A DNA stretch of 64,000 nt from Pseudomonadota bacterium. Its GTDB lineage: Bacteria > Pseudomonadota > Gammaproteobacteria > JAKAQQ01. Both the position numbers and the translations under genes were made by a program. Shown here in pieces: positions 58,325 to 64,000 of this stretch. Positions within the stretch are counted from its first letter, which is position 1; the number at the start of each line of letters is the position of its first letter. The notes beneath the pieces are model-generated. The model searched no databases. It saw only the letters and a program-made list of their open reading frames with translations, and had not been told where the DNA came from. Where the stretch lies: positions 32,001 to 96,000 of the forward strand of contig DAHVLZ010000019.1 of the NCBI GenBank assembly GCA_027320085.1, written 5' to 3'.

Positions 58325-59617
58325 ATGATCCGGGTGGGGACGCTTCCCCAAAAGTTTGCGGGAATGCTCCGGCTCCCGGGCAGCAAGTACGTTGCCAATC
58401 GTGCCTTCCTCATGGCTGCACTCGCCCGGGGAACCAGTGTGATCGAAAACGCCCCGGACAACCAGGACATAGAACGGGCGCGTGATTTCGGTTTTTTCCT
58501 CGGTGCCGATCTTTGCCGGGACGGGGAGGAGTGGCTGGTTCGAGGTGTTGCAGGATGCCCGGAATGGAGAAAACCAAAGGTGTTTTTCTGTGGCGAGAGC
58601 GGGACCCTGGCCCGCTGGGCTTTGGCCCTGGCCACACTGTCTTCAGATCCGATCCGGCTCGAGGGTGCCCCGCGACTCCAGGAACGGCCGATGGCGGAAC
58701 TGGTGTCTGTGCTCATGAACCTGGGTGCGCGGATCGAGCCGGAAAACGCAAGGGGATTGCCGCTTTCGATATCGGGACCCCTGCGCGGTGGACGGGTGAC
58801 GCTTTCAGGACAGGTCAGCAGTCAGTTTGGCAGCGCCCTCCTCACGCTGGCACCCCTTTTGCCGGAGGGGCTGGTCATCGATTTCACCCATCCCCCCGTT
58901 TCCCGGAGCTATCTCGAACTCACGCTCGAAACCCTGCGGACCTTTGGCGTCTCGGGAAGATGCGATCCGGACTGGCATCTCGAGGTTCCGGGCGGACAGC
59001 ACTACCGGGCGACCCGCATCCGGATTGACCCGGATCCGGTCCTCGCGGGCTACTTCATGGCGTTGCCGGCCGTACTGGGCGGCAGCCTCCACCTGCCCGG
59101 CTTTTTCCCCAAGGATGCGGGTGAGGGGAGAGTGGCCACGCTCCTCTCCCGCATGGGTCTGTCGGTCCGCGCCGGCGCGGAGGGTCTCACGGTTCTTGCC
59201 TCCGGAGAACCGCTCTGTGCCTTGGGGACCGTGGATCTGTCGGATGCGCCCGATGGGGTCCCCACGCTGGCCGTTCTCGCTGCACTGGCGGAATCCGGGA
59301 CCACCCGGTTTACCGGCATCGGTCATTTGCGGTACAAGGAATCCGACCGGCTCCTGGATCTGGCCCGCGAGATGGTCGCGGCGGGCCTCAACGTCCGGGT
59401 CGAGGCCGGAGACTTGGTCATTCACGGGGGCGGGCGATTGCAGCCGGTGGTTTTGGACGCGCATGGGGATCACCGGCTGGCCATGAGTTTTGCCCTACTG
59501 GCGGTGGCCTGTCCCGGGCTTTCCATCCGCGGGGAAGCCAGTGTCGGGAAGTCTTCCCCGGATTTCTGGCGTAGACTCGAATCCCTCGGTATTTCCTGGG
59601 TTCCCGCCCGTGACTGA
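58325..59617 (+). CDS. aroA: 3-phosphoshikimate 1-carboxyvinyltransferase (divergent)
   Basis: LPGSK...NRA, SGT..R, ERPM, SSQF, KESDRL, DHRLAMSF, KS.PDFW. Confidence 0.85.
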   Translation: MIRVGTLPQKFAGMLRLPGSKYVANRAFLMAALARGTSVIENAPDNQDIERARDFGFFLGADLCRDGEEWLVRGVAGCPEWRKPKVFFCGESGTLARWALALATLSSDPIRLEGAPRLQERPMAELVSVLMNLGARIEPENARGLPLSISGPLRGGRVTLSGQVSSQFGSALLTLAPLLPEGLVIDFTHPPVSRSYLELTLETLRTFGVSGRCDPDWHLEVPGGQHYRATRIRIDPDPVLAGYFMALPAVLGGSLHLPGFFPKDAGEGRVATLLSRMGLSVRAGAEGLTVLASGEPLCALGTVDLSDAPDGVPTLAVLAALAESGTTRFTGIGHLRYKESDRLLDLAREMVAAGLNVRVEAGDLVIHGGGRLQPVVLDAHGDHRLAMSFALLAVACPGLSIRGEASVGKSSPDFWRRLESLGISWVPARD

Positions 59618-59726: not shown

Positions 59727-60173
59727 ATGCGGTCCGGTTTAGTCGTGCTCCTCATGATCGGGCTTGCGGCATGCAACATGACCGGTTCCGCATCCGGACA
59801 TTTAGGACGCGACCGGAACCCCAGCCCGGTCACCGCTCCGGGCAAGACTTCCCGGGTGCTCCCGGCCCCAGTCACCCGTTTGACGTTACGCGTGCTGGCC
59901 CGGATGCGGGCCGGGCAGGATCCGGCGGTGCTCAGTGAAGCGGGGCGCTGGCAAGTCGACCGGAAGGGACGCTTGGATCTCGTGATCCGGCTCCAGGGGC
60001 ATTGGGCCCCGCTGGTCCGCTGGATCCGGCATCAGGGGGGGCGGGTTGTGGCCGTGGTTCCCCTGGTGCACGAGTGCGAGGCCTGGATTCCGGCGGATCA
60101 GGTGGCTCGTCTGTCCCGGAGACCAGGGGTGGTTCTTGTCCGGTTTCCGCATTATGCTATGAACCGAAGGTAA
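59727..60173 (+). CDS. lipoprotein resembling the propeptide of the downstream subtilase
   Basis: MRSGLVVLLMIGLAAC lipobox; C-terminal ~100 aa align by eye with residues ~50-149 of the next gene; stop overlaps that gene's TAAGGAG RBS. Confidence 0.8.
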   Translation: MRSGLVVLLMIGLAACNMTGSASGHLGRDRNPSPVTAPGKTSRVLPAPVTRLTLRVLARMRAGQDPAVLSEAGRWQVDRKGRLDLVIRLQGHWAPLVRWIRHQGGRVVAVVPLVHECEAWIPADQVARLSRRPGVVLVRFPHYAMNRR

Positions 60174-60185
60174 GGAGTATTCATC

Positions 60186-62252
60186 ATGATGAAAGCTGTT
60201 TTCAGACTGGTTGTCGCGTTCGGGCTCGTCACAGCCTCGATCGGACTGGCCAAGGCCGGCAACAACCCGGTGAACCTAAGCAAGCTGGCGCCCGCCCTGC
60301 GGGAGGTGGCGAATGCGGCCCATGCGCCTCAGGCTCTCGCACGTGTGCAGGCGGAAGGCTATGTGTCAGGGTTGAGCAATGAGGTCCGGCCGGCTCCCGG
60401 CCAGGTCCGGTGGAATCGGGAGGGTGCGGTCCAGGTGGACGTGCGCTTTGCCACACCGCTCGCTCTCGGGGCCACACAAGCGTCCTTGCGTGCACTGGGT
60501 GCGCGCGGACTCGTCACCGACCCGTACAACAGCATTGCCGAGATGTGGCTGTCTCCGGCCAGCCTGATGCAAGTGGCGGCCCTGCCCGGTGTCCAGGCGA
60601 TCACGGTGCCGCACTATGCGGTGGTGAGACGGGAGGTCGCCTACGGATCGAATCCAACCTACTACGATACCGCGGGGTCGAATGCCTTGGGAGCCGTTGC
60701 CTTCGCCAATGCGACGGGGGATATCGGGTCGGGAATCAGCGTCGGGGTGATTTCGGATGGCGCCCAGGACTACCAGACGGATGTCCAGCAGGGGTACCTT
60801 CCGAGCACTGTCTGGATTGATCCCAATGACTCGAAATACAAATCGTCGGGGAACGAGGGCGCTGCCATGATGCAGATCGTCTACGACTCGGCGCCCGGCG
60901 TGAAACTCGGATTTTGTGGGCCGTCGACGGACATCCAATTCCTCTCCTGCCTGAGCGACTTCGAGAGTTCGTCCTTCAAGGCCAACATCATTGTGGACGA
61001 CCTCGGTTTCCCGGGGGTGGCCATGTTCCAGAACGGGACGTTTGCGACGGGAGTCGCGAGTTTTGCCCAGTCCAACCCGAGCGTCCACCTGGTCACCGCA
61101 GCCGGCAACGACAACCAGGCCTTCTGGCAGGGGACGTTCACGCCGATGACCCTGAGTACCCCGCTGACTCTGAATGGGGTTACCTATACGGAAGCCAACA
61201 ATTTCGGGACCAGTGCCAATCCCAATCCTTATGCAGATGTGGGCATCGCGTCAACCGACACTGATTACTGGATTCTGGAATGGGCCGATCCTTGGGAAAG
61301 CCCGGTCGGGGATTACGATGTGGTGGTCTATGCCCAAAAGCCGGGTGGGACGCCCGTGGCCTGCAACCAGGGTGACCAGATCGATTCGACGGGCTGCTCG
61401 TTTTCGACCACGCCCGGTACGAGCCCGGGACCCAATCCGGTCCAGGGGAATGCCTATAAGAATACCGCGACGACTGCCCAGATCCTCTACATCGAGGTCC
61501 TGCTGCGCAACAGCACGACACCGAGTACCTCGCTCAAGCTCCTGACCGGATCGGTGAGTTCCCACGCGCTTTTCCTGAACCCGGATTCCCCGAACGGCAG
61601 CATCTATGGGCAGTCCGCCCTGCCCCAGGAGTTTACGGTCGGCGCCATGGATGTCGATGAAGTGGGTAGCAGCACCGCGAAGATCGAACACTACAGTTCG
61701 ACCGGTCCGGTTGATTTCGAGTACTCCTCCCTCACCTCGACGACCCCCTCGCCCACTTCGATTCCCAAACCGGACATCACGGGGGTGGACGGGGTCACGA
61801 TCAACCCGCTGAGCGGTTTCACCCCGCCCTTTTTTGGCACGTCGGCGGCCGCGCCCCACATTGCAGCGCTCATGGCCCTGCTTCTCCAGCACGCCCCCAC
61901 TACCAATCCCGAATCGACCCTGAAGACGGTTTCCAGCCTCCCCGGGGGGGCACCTGCGACCGGGGCCAGTAGCATTTATGGTGCCGGTGTGCCCTGCCTT
62001 GCGAAACTGACGGCTGCGGGTGTTTCGGCCTGCAATCCCGACTCGACGGCTACCATCACGGTGGGTGGCAGTTCCTCTTCCGGGAGCAGCAGCTCGAGTT
62101 CCGGTGGGGGAGGGGGGGGGCTGGGTCCGATCGTCCTTCTCCTGCTGGCCGGTTTTGCGTGGGGTGGTGGATGGGCAAGCCGCCGGCGGAAGGGTGTTGG
62201 GTGTCCAACCGATCGGGGAGGGCCACGAAATTCGGCGCTGTCATTGGAATAG
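60186..62252 (+). CDS. secreted subtilase (S8/S53-like, Glu at the His position) with GlyGly-CTERM-type anchor
   Basis: Signal peptide, propeptide, VGVISDG, GNEGAAMMQIVYD.AP, AAGND, YSS.GP, KPDITGVDG, FFGTSAAAPH; tail SSSSGGGGGGLGPIVLLLLAGF..RRRK. Confidence 0.9.
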   Translation: MMKAVFRLVVAFGLVTASIGLAKAGNNPVNLSKLAPALREVANAAHAPQALARVQAEGYVSGLSNEVRPAPGQVRWNREGAVQVDVRFATPLALGATQASLRALGARGLVTDPYNSIAEMWLSPASLMQVAALPGVQAITVPHYAVVRREVAYGSNPTYYDTAGSNALGAVAFANATGDIGSGISVGVISDGAQDYQTDVQQGYLPSTVWIDPNDSKYKSSGNEGAAMMQIVYDSAPGVKLGFCGPSTDIQFLSCLSDFESSSFKANIIVDDLGFPGVAMFQNGTFATGVASFAQSNPSVHLVTAAGNDNQAFWQGTFTPMTLSTPLTLNGVTYTEANNFGTSANPNPYADVGIASTDTDYWILEWADPWESPVGDYDVVVYAQKPGGTPVACNQGDQIDSTGCSFSTTPGTSPGPNPVQGNAYKNTATTAQILYIEVLLRNSTTPSTSLKLLTGSVSSHALFLNPDSPNGSIYGQSALPQEFTVGAMDVDEVGSSTAKIEHYSSTGPVDFEYSSLTSTTPSPTSIPKPDITGVDGVTINPLSGFTPPFFGTSAAAPHIAALMALLLQHAPTTNPESTLKTVSSLPGGAPATGASSIYGAGVPCLAKLTAAGVSACNPDSTATITVGGSSSSGSSSSSSGGGGGGLGPIVLLLLAGFAWGGGWASRRRKGVGCPTDRGGPRNSALSLE

Positions 62253-62275: not shown

Positions 62276-62344
62276 TGATTCAGCCTGACCGCCCAGGGCG
62301 GGGAAGCTTTGAGCCCCAAGGTTGAGGGCCCGTCTGTTCCACCG

Positions 62345-64000
62345 ATGGTGCCAGATGCCGGTGGCTGGGTTGTTTTGGGCTGGCCTGCAGGGAGGATTCT
62401 CGGGGTCAGCCAAACCGTTGCCTCTGATTTCCAGGTTCTGAAAGAGGGTGCGGAACCTTCTTCGGATCGTCCCTCCACCGAATCCGGATTGCGCGATTGG
62501 CTGATCCGCGCGGTTCAGGAAAGCCAGAAAACAAACCCCCAACCACAGGATCCCCTCTCATCGCCAAACGGTCGGACCTGGTGGCTGTCAGGACATCCTG
62601 AACCCCTGGTTTTCAAGGGGCTTTCTTCATTTCTACTGAATCTCGTCGATCGGTCGCCCGCGCTCTCCGCACAGGTTCAGGATGGGTTTTCGGAAGAGGA
62701 GAGTCCGGATCGAGAGAATGCTTTCCTCAAGGAGCGCTACGACGTTTTGGTCGAGCACAGCCAGGACGGCGTGTTCCTGGCCCATGAGGGACGGTATCTC
62801 TACGTCAACCAGACCTATGCCAATATGCTGGGTTATTCCCGTGAGGAGATGGAAGGCTCTTCGTTCCTGCGTTTCATCGCCCCGGAGGAGCATGTTCGCA
62901 TGCTCGAGATCTGGCGGGAGCGGGAAGCCGGCCGCTGGGAAAAGTCCACCTATGAAATGTTTCTGCTCAAAAAGGACGGAAAGACCCGGGTTCTGGCGTC
63001 AGTCCGGTCCGGCCCCATTTTTTTCAATGGCAAGCTCTCGAGTACCGGGACCATCCGGGACATCACGGCGGAGCGGAGTGCCGCGCGGGCCTTGCGGAAG
63101 ATCGAGAGAGACTACCAGGCGATTTTCGAGAACTCGCTGATCGGAATCTATCAGAGCCTGCCCGAAGGTCGATTCCGGACGGCTAACGAGTCACTGGCGC
63201 GCATGCTGGGTTACGGAAGCGCCCATCAGCTCGTGGAGCAGGTCCAGAACATCGCCAATCTCTTTGTGGATCCGGCCGACCGCTTGCGGCTCAATCAACG
63301 GCTGGATAGTGATGACCATGTGACCGGATACGAACTGCGGTTGCGTCGGCGGGACGGAACACTGCTTTTCGCGGAAGCCAGCTCCCGTTCCATCCGGCGC
63401 AAGGATGGAAGCTTGGCCTATTACGAAGGCTCGCTCGTGGATGTGACCGAACGGAAACGGGCGGAAGCGGCCTTGATGCGATCGGAAATGCGGTATCGGA
63501 CACTCGTCGAGAACAGCCATGTCGGCGTCTTCATCCTGGAAAAGAATCGCTTCGTATACGTCAATGAATCGTTTGCCCATATGCTCGGATGGGAATCGGA
63601 ACAATTGGTGGGTCAGTCGTTCCGGGACTTGGTGCTGCCGAAGCTGCAGTCCGTGTGCGACGAATGTCTGGGCCGCCTGGCCCGTGCAGAATCCACCGTC
63701 GAATCGCGCGAATGGTCCTTGGTCCACCGGGATCCGGCAGTGGTTCCGACGGCGCTGGTCAGCATGCAGAGTCTCGTGACCGATCTGGGCACGATTCTCA
63801 TGGGCACTTCCGTCGATATTACCGAGCGCAAACGGATCGAGGCGCGCCTGATCCATCAAGCCGGACACGATCCCCTGACCGGTTTGCCTAACCGCGTTCT
63901 TTTCAGTGAACAACTCGATCAAGCAATCCGGGGATTCGAGCCCGATCAGCGTCCCTATGCGGTCCTCTTGTTTGAAGTCGATACGTATCAACTGGTCAAT
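62345..64000 (+). CDS. multi-PAS sensor with GGDEF domain, partial (runs off window)
   Basis: Not in ORF track (no stop). One frame gives ERYDVLVEHSQDGVF..YVNQ..MLGYSREEM, two more PAS/PAC repeats, then HDPLTGLPNR...YAVLLFEVDTYQLVN; start uncertain (TTG 62309/ATG 62345). Confidence 0.9.
   Translation, partial: MVPDAGGWVVLGWPAGRILGVSQTVASDFQVLKEGAEPSSDRPSTESGLRDWLIRAVQESQKTNPQPQDPLSSPNGRTWWLSGHPEPLVFKGLSSFLLNLVDRSPALSAQVQDGFSEEESPDRENAFLKERYDVLVEHSQDGVFLAHEGRYLYVNQTYANMLGYSREEMEGSSFLRFIAPEEHVRMLEIWREREAGRWEKSTYEMFLLKKDGKTRVLASVRSGPIFFNGKLSSTGTIRDITAERSAARALRKIERDYQAIFENSLIGIYQSLPEGRFRTANESLARMLGYGSAHQLVEQVQNIANLFVDPADRLRLNQRLDSDDHVTGYELRLRRRDGTLLFAEASSRSIRRKDGSLAYYEGSLVDVTERKRAEAALMRSEMRYRTLVENSHVGVFILEKNRFVYVNESFAHMLGWESEQLVGQSFRDLVLPKLQSVCDECLGRLARAESTVESREWSLVHRDPAVVPTALVSMQSLVTDLGTILMGTSVDITERKRIEARLIHQAGHDPLTGLPNRVLFSEQLDQAIRGFEPDQRPYAVLLFEVDTYQLVN

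Follow-up and report, generated by a model that had tools for sequence, protein, structure and literature searches.

Why would a bacterium encode, immediately upstream of a secreted subtilisin-like protease that carries its own prodomain, a small lipoprotein resembling a free-standing copy of that same prodomain? The question is raised by two genes at positions 59727 to 62252 of the window, by which we mean the whole stretch of DNA analysed here, 64,000 nucleotides (nt) of contig DAHVLZ010000019.1 (positions 32,001 to 96,000) in the gammaproteobacterial assembly GCA_027320085.1. An earlier note, made from the sequence of the window alone, had interpreted the first gene product as a membrane-tethered inhibitor or foldase of the second. 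Sequence and profile comparisons indicate that the lipoprotein is a paralogue of the adjacent protease's own propeptide (residues ~49-149). On balance, we consider it probable that the two products constitute a dedicated module, in which the protease is paired with a membrane-tethered inhibitor mimicking its propeptide. The lipoprotein half of the locus comprises the following features.

59727..60173, + strand: lipoprotein gene of 148 amino acids (aa), stop included, a free-standing propeptide paralogue (open reading frame (ORF) and translation, orthologues, ratio of nonsynonymous to synonymous substitution rates (dN/dS)).
59727..59774, + strand: signal peptide with lipobox LAAC, read from the translation; the codon of Cys16 lies at 59772-59774.
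59862..60155, + strand: propeptide-fold core (AlphaFold2 predicted local distance difference test score (pLDDT) >90, Foldseek, hhalign to the protease prodomain).
60147..60170, + strand: C-terminal tail (PHYAMNRR, residues 141-148), whose carboxyl end is free; the predicted cleft-binding warhead (complex prediction; position of the terminus kept in the family).
60171..60177, + strand: TAA stop codon sharing bases with AAGGAG, the Shine-Dalgarno-like sequence of the protease gene (sequence; identical junction in the related genome G001).

The lipoprotein precursor begins MRSGLVVLLMIGLAAC, with the lipobox L-A-A-C at residues 13-16. Its stop codon (60171-60173) shares positions 60172-60173 with the AAGGAG at 60172-60177, which lies 8 nt 5' of the protease ATG, and 12 nt separate the stop from that ATG. 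The mature lipoprotein has an isoelectric point (pI) of 11.9, with Arg at 20 of 132 residues, against a pI of 4.05 for the catalytic region of the protease (residues 150-620), in which 471 residues include 1 Arg and 11 Lys. The earlier note had described a 148-aa lipoprotein with lipobox LAAC, a stop codon overlapping the ribosome-binding site of the protease gene, and an Arg-rich lipoprotein set against an acidic catalytic domain poor in Lys and Arg, and all three descriptions stand. The charge complementarity counts for a pairing of the lipoprotein with the protease. The ATG at 59727 is not kept in two congeners (loci L033 and L037), in which a TTG stands 2-4 codons further downstream, and gene callers gave the proteins of these two congeners (P0003 and P0004) far longer N-termini. 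A promoter and terminator scan returned one promoter-like site, on the minus strand, and two terminator-like sites against 2.9 expected, one of them within the lipoprotein gene.

The relationship to the prodomain was recovered by two alignment methods. BLASTP aligned lipoprotein residues 55-148 with protease residues 49-149 (27 of 104 identities, E 6e-6), and hhalign, comparing 11 free-standing copies with 72 proteases, gave a probability of 97.7% and an E-value of 1.4e-12 over 86 columns, with the last lipoprotein residue falling on protease R149. In the protease model, residues 151-161, directly after the prodomain, are disordered (pLDDT <50), so that the prodomain ends there and the lipoprotein stops at its end, as the earlier note had proposed. 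By this alignment, the lipoprotein ends at the very position where the C-terminus of the cis-propeptide would lie after processing. Structure prediction points in the same direction. The AlphaFold2 model of the mature lipoprotein has a pLDDT of 82.4 overall and >90 over residues 31-128, and its secondary structure elements (strand 67-74, helix 78-87, strand 91-96, strand 101-107, helix 108-115, strand 120-124; pLDDT >90) are identical in kind and order to those of the cis-prodomain model (strand 82-88, helix 91-103, strand 107-112, strand 117-122, helix 124-131, strand 136-140). In a Foldseek search of the PDB, the 20 best listed rows were all Tk-subtilisin or subtilisin BPN'/E propeptides or pro-forms, these rows having a probability of 1.00 and E-values of 3.5e-3 to 5e-2, and isolated propeptide chains reaching target-normalised template modelling (TM) scores of 0.69-0.78; next in rank came EpiP and the CspB prodomain. 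The ESM Atlas returned first unnamed clusters of 117-151 aa and, as a lead only, a CspB_prodomain cluster at 0.88. A significant alignment and a shared fold, with subtilisin propeptides as the best structural matches, are thus what came of the two comparisons that the earlier note had suggested as checks of its reading.

The lipoprotein was matched in nine of nine same-family genomes, and only one free-standing copy is present in the genome from which the window comes (2.14 Mb, 47 contigs). Direct adjacency to the orthologous protease was found in the window and in six of the nine (G001, G002, G003, G005, G007, G009), a count that excludes the 65% complete genome G008; in G001 the contig end cuts the protease gene after ~270 nt. 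In genus g2 (G004, G006), a distance of 3-5 kb separates the lipoprotein copy from a protease of 662-664 aa. The Cys following a hydrophobic stretch is kept in all nine orthologues, the lipobox pattern [LVI][ASTVI][GAS]C fits six of them exactly and three nearly (LGGC once, CAGC twice), and Asp at position +2 is absent from every one. Identity to the window copy in genus g3 is 42-50% for the lipoprotein and 65-66% for the protease. The dN/dS ratio of the lipoprotein gene is 0.23-0.46 (18 of 21 pairs computable, three saturated) and 0.23-0.33 in the three close pairs with dS <0.7; the cis-prodomain gives a similar 0.18-0.53 and the catalytic part a lower 0.06-0.16. Since these ratios are well below 1, the lipoprotein gene is maintained by purifying selection and is not a decaying duplicate. 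A truncated duplicate free of such selection was among the outcomes that the earlier note had said would overturn its reading.

A second free-standing copy of the g2 genomes (L028 2483-2974 and L029 3619-4110, both on the minus strand) immediately precedes the gene of a 796-799-aa protease; this copy has a Sec-type signal and a Gly-rich, hydrophobic and RRK C-terminal tail instead of a lipobox, that is, a different anchor on the same domain; no NCBIfam model matched this tail. Beyond the family, matches in the genome search (E >= 0.013, many with stops, one in G047) were treated as noise. Among 400 further genomes of the phylum, with nine candidates scored per genome, the search gave, besides the own genome, one weak match (E 2.8e-5), interrupted by a stop codon, and the propeptide-copy domain is rare among those 400.

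What, then, would such a lipoprotein act upon? The adjacent gene and its product comprise the following features.

60186..62252, + strand: gene of a subtilisin-fold protease of 688 aa, stop included (Pfam PF00082, AlphaFold2, Foldseek).
60186..60257, + strand: Sec-type signal peptide, residues 1-24, ...GLAKA|G (cleavage site read by eye; helix 2-26 in the model).
60258..60632, + strand: cis-prodomain, residues 25-149, ending PHYAVVRR (BLASTP, hhalign, model).
60669..62045, + strand: catalytic domain, residues ~162-620, with an inserted beta-sandwich at ~313-456 (conserved columns; Tk-SP alignment).
60756-60758, 60855-60857, 61107-61109 and 61842-61844, + strand: codons of the active-site residues D191, E224, N308 and S553, respectively (alignment).
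62064..62192, + strand: sorting-signal-like tail, residues 627-669, with a Gly/Ser run, a hydrophobic stretch and RRRK (read from the translation).

Pfam PF00082 (Peptidase_S8) matches the protease at 26.2 bits against a cut-off of 21.8 and covers only residues 359-578. A phmmer search against PDB sequences gave 0 matches, subtilases being reached by profiles only, with the subtilase mirolase as the best PDB sequence match of the protease profile. For the AlphaFold2 model (pLDDT 82.5, predicted TM score (pTM) 0.81), the nearest solved structures in Foldseek are those of Csp subtilases from clostridia (E 3e-16 to 1e-12), with other pro-subtilases next and pro-kumamolisin in 18th place. The profile alignment to Tk-SP covers the Asp, Asn and Ser segments and places Asn308 on the AAGN of Tk-SP. 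The inserted beta-sandwich (window ~61122-61553, residues ~313-456) follows the Asn segment and precedes the Ser segment. In Tk-SP it is the beta-jelly-roll at the C-terminus to which this insertion aligns, and the insertion gives the protease a Csp-like architecture.

The active site has a feature that the earlier note overlooked: Glu224, within the motif GNEGAAMMQIVYDSAPG, occupies the position of the catalytic His. Asp191, Glu224, Asn308 and Ser553 are invariant in 11 close relatives, and across 80 loci from bacteria and archaea the Asp is kept in 80, the Glu in 79, the Asn in 80 and the Ser in 78, both Ser misses being truncated sequences; the Glu motif across loci L038-L117 reads D/N-E-G-T-A-M-L-E-I-V-H-D. 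In the 72-sequence protease alignment, no column holds a His that is invariant or reaches >=90%. Of the features that define S8, the Asn of the oxyanion hole is therefore present (Asn308) and the Asp-His-Ser triad is not, Asp191 and Ser553 being joined by Glu224 in place of His. In sedolisins (S53), the Glu is followed at +4 by an Asp, and the oxyanion residue is likewise Asp. The window protease has Met228 at Glu +4 (motif EGAAMMQ) and Asn308 at the oxyanion position, and so does not conform to S53 either, for which a Ser-Glu-Asp triad is described (PMC11593635). Glu combined with an Asp placed as in S8, and with Asn as the oxyanion residue, may represent a third catalytic arrangement within the subtilisin fold.

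Complex prediction was performed with the catalytic region (residues 150-620, with the 72-protease alignment) and mature lipoprotein residues 30-133 (with the free-copy alignment). It returned an interaction prediction score from aligned errors (ipSAE) of 0.84 (runs 0.84, 0.82 and 0.84) against 0.02 for the best control; the ipSAE mark is reached by 58 of 80 solved complexes and by 2 of 110 mismatched pairs. The pLDDT of the partner is at least 87, and at least 87% of the contacts are common to the runs. On the protease side, the predicted interface consists of strands 246-254 and 272-278 together with residues 190-191, 224, 305-308 and 549-554, thereby including Asp191, Glu224, Asn308 and Ser553. 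On the lipoprotein side it is formed by mature residues 124 and 126-133, corresponding to F139 and P141-R148 of the precursor. The prediction supports the binding mode, in which the PHYAMNRR tail may sit in the active-site cleft; the earlier note had named precisely such a placement of the C-terminal residues as an outcome to look for.

We therefore turn to how the pair might work. After Sec export and lipidation, the lipoprotein would be held on the membrane, facing the periplasm or the cell surface, and its close gene spacing to the protease would ensure that both products are made together. It would bind the acidic catalytic domain as a cleaved propeptide does, with its beta-sheet on two surface helices, and its free tail, PHYAMNRR-COOH, would lie in the substrate cleft against Asp191, Glu224, Asn308 and Ser553 and block it. 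As the protease still has a cis-prodomain to fold with, the lipoprotein would most likely serve as a second safety catch, non-covalent and membrane-bound, which captures enzyme that has lost its own propeptide before or during export, or holds the enzyme latent at the surface. In E. coli, the absence of Asp at +2 directs a lipoprotein to the outer membrane, and by this sorting rule we speculate that the lipoprotein is sent there. Sequencing-run labels point to a mine-drainage habitat, and it is a further speculation that low pH could loosen the pairing of an Arg-rich inhibitor with a carboxylate-rich enzyme.

Is the window pair an isolated case? A word-indexed protein search found only two near-length homologues (P0003 and P0004). 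A profile search with the free-copy alignment against 1.84 billion representative proteins gave 243 matches at E <= 1e-3, 13 of them at E <= 1e-10. We kept 147 proteins, drawn from the 150 listed of the 243 together with P0003 and P0004, after dropping the window protease and five repeat-type matches; 93 are <= 240 aa and 54 are longer. In all 54 long proteins the domain begins within the first 250 residues, and six of ten scanned match Pfam Peptidase_S8 at E <= 0.001, five above the gathering score (one of the ten, an FG-GAP repeat protein, was dropped). In 57 of the 93 small proteins, the domain ends <= 7 residues from the C-terminus; 51 of these do not belong to the window's family, a lipobox pattern precedes the domain in 23, and in 27 the chain stops exactly 3 residues past P-x-Y-A. 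Within a subgroup of 17, fifteen end in P-x-Y-A-x-x-R with nothing after, thirteen of them in R-R. The other 36 small proteins have longer tails, several being plainly N-terminal fragments of proteases. A scan of the window lipoprotein gave TPP_enzyme_N as its sole Pfam row (19.1 bits, under the 26.8 cut-off) and nothing in NCBIfam, and in a Pfam scan of 10 small members no family was found in any. As judged from these searches, there is a Pfam-less family of small free-standing proteins, many with a lipobox, in which membrane tethering recurs by different means, either a lipobox (23 of 57) or the Sec signal and C-terminal tail of g2.

The protease alignment was also scanned against one genome per species, yielding 80 loci from many bacterial phyla and methanogenic archaea. 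A free-standing copy accompanies the protease at nine of ten loci of the window's family, the tenth being cut by a contig end. The remaining 70 loci lie outside the family. At four of them a free-standing copy clearly stands beside the protease, directly upstream in L047, L056 and L103 and just downstream on the other strand in L046 (Mizugakiibacter), and L075 has a partial adjacent copy. Small ORFs near proteases in L094, L101, L092 and L067 show a partial domain match or a split prodomain and were not counted as pairs. For metagenomes, a 51-row alignment proved too diverse, and a closer 17-row alignment returned four loci with a free-standing copy, three of which have the protease directly downstream. 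Every paired protease retains its cis-prodomain, and the free tail resembles the cis tail of its partner (LPTYGVSN-end and LPNYGFNN, LPRYARPR-end and VPRYARSRR, APSYASRR-end and PPSYSVRR). The survey of gene neighbourhoods that the earlier note had recommended thus finds the pairing kept in relatives and recurring in unrelated lineages. In a domain tree of 126 sequences and 115 columns, with many forks unresolved, the free and cis labels need 13 changes against 41.6 when shuffled, at least 4 of them forced by well-supported branches, and the free copies of L049, L056 and L103 sit beside their own partner's cis-prodomain. In the window's family, the free copies form a clade of 10 rows (Shimodaira-Hasegawa-like approximate likelihood ratio test (SH-aLRT) 97) and the cis-prodomains one of 6 rows (SH-aLRT 99), each of them old. 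Given these label changes and clade supports, free-standing copies appear to have arisen repeatedly from cis-prodomains, and in the window's family to have done so before the genera split.

Several observations weigh against a dedicated inhibitor. No free-standing copy lies within 6 kb of the protease at 65 of the 70 loci outside the family, so that the copy is an accessory and not a requirement, and no protease was found within 5 kb at the metagenome locus L124. The g2 lipoprotein copy is not adjacent to the protease and has a differing tail, FPTRAHGGN. The cis-prodomain would occupy the same site on the protease as the trans copy. Neither PF05922 (Inhibitor_I9) nor PF18425 (CspB_prodomain) matched the lipoprotein or 10 other free-standing homologues at E <= 1, and Foldseek found no PDB match for the lipoprotein at E <= 0.001, its E-values being weak. 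As solved subtilisin-propeptide complexes exist, the pass in complex prediction may reflect likeness to them and not binding. The organism, moreover, is known only as a metagenome-assembled genome.

Four other explanations have to be set beside that of the tethered inhibitor. The main rival, which we regard as unlikely, is a trans-acting foldase or steric chaperone: the tethered copy would template the folding of the catalytic domain after Sec translocation, and inhibition would be a by-product. Subtilisin propeptides can template folding in trans, the fold and predicted docking of the lipoprotein are those of a folding-competent propeptide, the genes are tightly coupled, and the cis-prodomain evolves fast compared with the catalytic part, so a chaperone role could be shared. 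However, the full cis-prodomain is present in every paired protease, and for this reason a tethered inhibitor appears likelier than a foldase; the 65 loci mentioned above manage without a free copy, and a free C-terminus conserved at the site of processing is in keeping with an inhibitor-like end state. Distinctly less probable still is a membrane docking or activation-timing partner, which would anchor the enzyme, or compete with the cis-propeptide to speed or delay its release, and not be a stable inhibitor. Recurrent tethering, by lipobox or C-terminal anchor, the sorting tail of the protease itself, and a predicted interface at the propeptide site, where competition with the cis copy is possible, would all suit such a role, but a partner docked in the active-site cleft would stop catalysis and so be, in effect, an inhibitor.

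It is very improbable that the lipoprotein is directed at other enzymes, either a paralogous protease encoded on contig C42 or foreign subtilases of the community. That 785-aa paralogue (30% identity) has no adjacent small copy, and a potempin, PotA, is described as also inhibiting a host protease (PMC9890683); yet in independent pairs the free tail resembles that of the adjacent protease, and the linkage is to the adjacent gene. We give least credence of all to the idea that the lipoprotein gene is a remnant without function, left when the 5' end of the protease gene was duplicated in tandem. Paralogy to the first 150 codons of the neighbouring gene is what such a remnant would show, but the dN/dS values, the lipobox and terminus kept across three genera at 42-78% identity, the well-supported free and cis clades, and the large family of similar free-standing proteins speak against it, and we rejected the idea of a decaying duplicate on the grounds of dN/dS and conservation. 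The inhibitor-or-foldase interpretation of the earlier note is accordingly supported as far as computation goes: all the computational checks that it had suggested spoke in its favour, and none of the computable results that it had named as refuting was obtained; between its two halves, we prefer the tethered inhibitor.

The C-terminal tail of the protease starts with a run of Gly and Ser at 627-645, continues with hydrophobic residues at 646-665 and has RRRK at 666-669; beyond this the chain extends for 19 further residues. The same genome encodes a rhombosortase (TIGR03902, contig C29, 117.1 bits against a cut-off of 84) and the type II secretin GspD (519 bits against 351). A whole-genome search with TIGR03501 (GlyGly-CTERM) matched four other tails, and the protease tail was not among them; against NCBIfam, the last 70 protease residues matched only the SVAGG family, weakly and in its tail (E 0.002). 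GlyGly-CTERM is described as a C-terminus of three parts, Gly/Ser-rich, hydrophobic and basic (PMC6219818). The earlier note had called the enzyme a GlyGly-CTERM protease: the three-part tail and the rhombosortase in the genome fit this label, but the model itself is not reached, and as far as the sequence indicates the label is a resemblance only. Similar Ser/Gly-rich, hydrophobic and basic tails end frames at C23:18174-18359, C38:49-180, C12:168-344 and C44:151-372, with 39-51% identity to protease residues ~603-682, and three of them have a TAG inside the match. The paralogous protease on contig C42 (81139-83163, minus strand; locus L004 1264-3618) has the same Glu motif, a similar C-terminal tail, and no free-standing propeptide copy beside its gene. 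The flanks of the window pair are syntenic in relatives, as read at loci L032, L034 and L037: the 430-aa upstream ORF (window 58325-59617) has a homologue at the same position in G002, and the long downstream ORF (window 62309-64000), which by eye resembles a repeat-containing signalling protein, has homologues at the same position in G003 and G009.

More tentatively, and with less confidence than in the module itself, we propose that the window pair is one lineage of a widespread and undescribed prokaryotic system. In this system, subtilisin-fold peptidases without the His, standing between S8 and S53 with Asp-Glu-Ser and an Asn oxyanion hole, would have had their propeptide repeatedly released as a membrane-tethered gene, with the free C-terminus at the processing site acting as the inhibitory warhead. 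Bacteria and archaea would in that case have a built-in inhibitor of their own, gated by export or pH. Stand-alone propeptide-like subtilase inhibitors, as surveyed in PMC6993865, are characterised only in eukaryotes. Should the window lipoprotein prove to be a bacterial inhibitor of this sort, tethered to the membrane and paralogous to the prodomain of its target, three consequences would follow. Duplicating the 5' end of a protease gene and adding an anchor would be a simple route to a dedicated inhibitor, one that the domain tree suggests has been taken several times. A Pfam-less family of small exported proteins would receive a name, and matched, specific inhibitor-protease pairs would become available for a protease family that lacks the canonical His; such pairs, coming from a mine-drainage organism, would be of interest for acid-stable enzymes.

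How does the pair compare with known systems? The protease can be set beside the Csp subtilases of Clostridia (CspA/B/C): these likewise combine a prodomain with a subtilase domain containing an inserted jelly-roll-type beta domain, but they share 12-15% identity with the window protease, which has Glu for the catalytic His, and we know of no free-standing lipoprotein copy for Csp proteins. Subtilisin cis-propeptides are intramolecular chaperones and temporary inhibitors. Those of Tk-subtilisin and subtilisin BPN'/E are the best structural matches of the window lipoprotein, for which a tail in the cleft is likewise predicted; unlike the lipoprotein, which is a separate lipid-anchored product beside a cis copy, they are a covalent part of the precursor and are degraded after activation. 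The foldase Lif of Pseudomonas and Burkholderia is a membrane-anchored periplasmic helper encoded beside its secreted lipase, and is an analogue for the foldase explanation only; Lif is all-helical and unrelated to its lipase, which has no cis-prodomain. Streptococcus has a propeptide-like inhibitor of a cysteine protease, Spi, which acts on SpeB.

The stand-alone I9-type inhibitors and mimics listed in PMC6993865 (Pleurotus POIA1, yeast PBI2, Arabidopsis SPI-1, TgMIC5 and Plasmodium SUB1-ProM) are all eukaryotic. SUB1-ProM, described there as a selective inhibitor, resembles the window lipoprotein in being encoded beside subtilase genes (PMC6993865). These inhibitors are soluble (PMC6993865), whereas the window protein is bacterial and lipobox-anchored. 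It further differs from them in being a demonstrable paralogue of its neighbour's own prodomain, as sequence comparison has it, and in being translationally close-coupled to the protease and without a Pfam I9 match.

The closest likeness in gene organisation is to the potempins of Tannerella forsythia, outer-membrane lipoproteins whose genes lie directly upstream of, and are co-transcribed with, those of the KLIKK-peptidases, the potempin stop overlapping the peptidase start or lying <=5 bp from it (PMC9890683). KLIKK-peptidases keep their own prodomains, and each potempin is described as a specific inhibitor protecting the outer membrane, PotC being the inhibitor of the subtilase mirolase (PMC9890683). 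The window pair shares this arrangement, its small lipoprotein ORF directly preceding the gene of a secreted peptidase with a prodomain of its own. Potempins, however, show no relation to the prodomain, being loop-inserting proteins of OB (oligonucleotide/oligosaccharide-binding) fold or eight-stranded beta-barrel structure, and KLIKK-peptidases carry type IX secretion C-terminal domains (PMC9890683), whereas the window lipoprotein has the alpha/beta propeptide fold with a free C-terminus as its predicted warhead, and the window protease ends in a GlyGly-CTERM-like tail. A search of full-text literature, with most subscription journals outside its coverage, found no bacterial propeptide-like lipoprotein inhibitor, and potempins, with their unrelated folds, were the only bacterial lipoprotein-inhibitor/peptidase operons found in it. 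The earlier statement that no such bacterial pair had been described agrees with the literature where propeptide-like inhibitors are concerned, but must be qualified by the potempins, a described operon of this kind with a different fold. The window pair joins the gene organisation and anchoring of the potempins with the fold and ancestry of the I9-type inhibitors.

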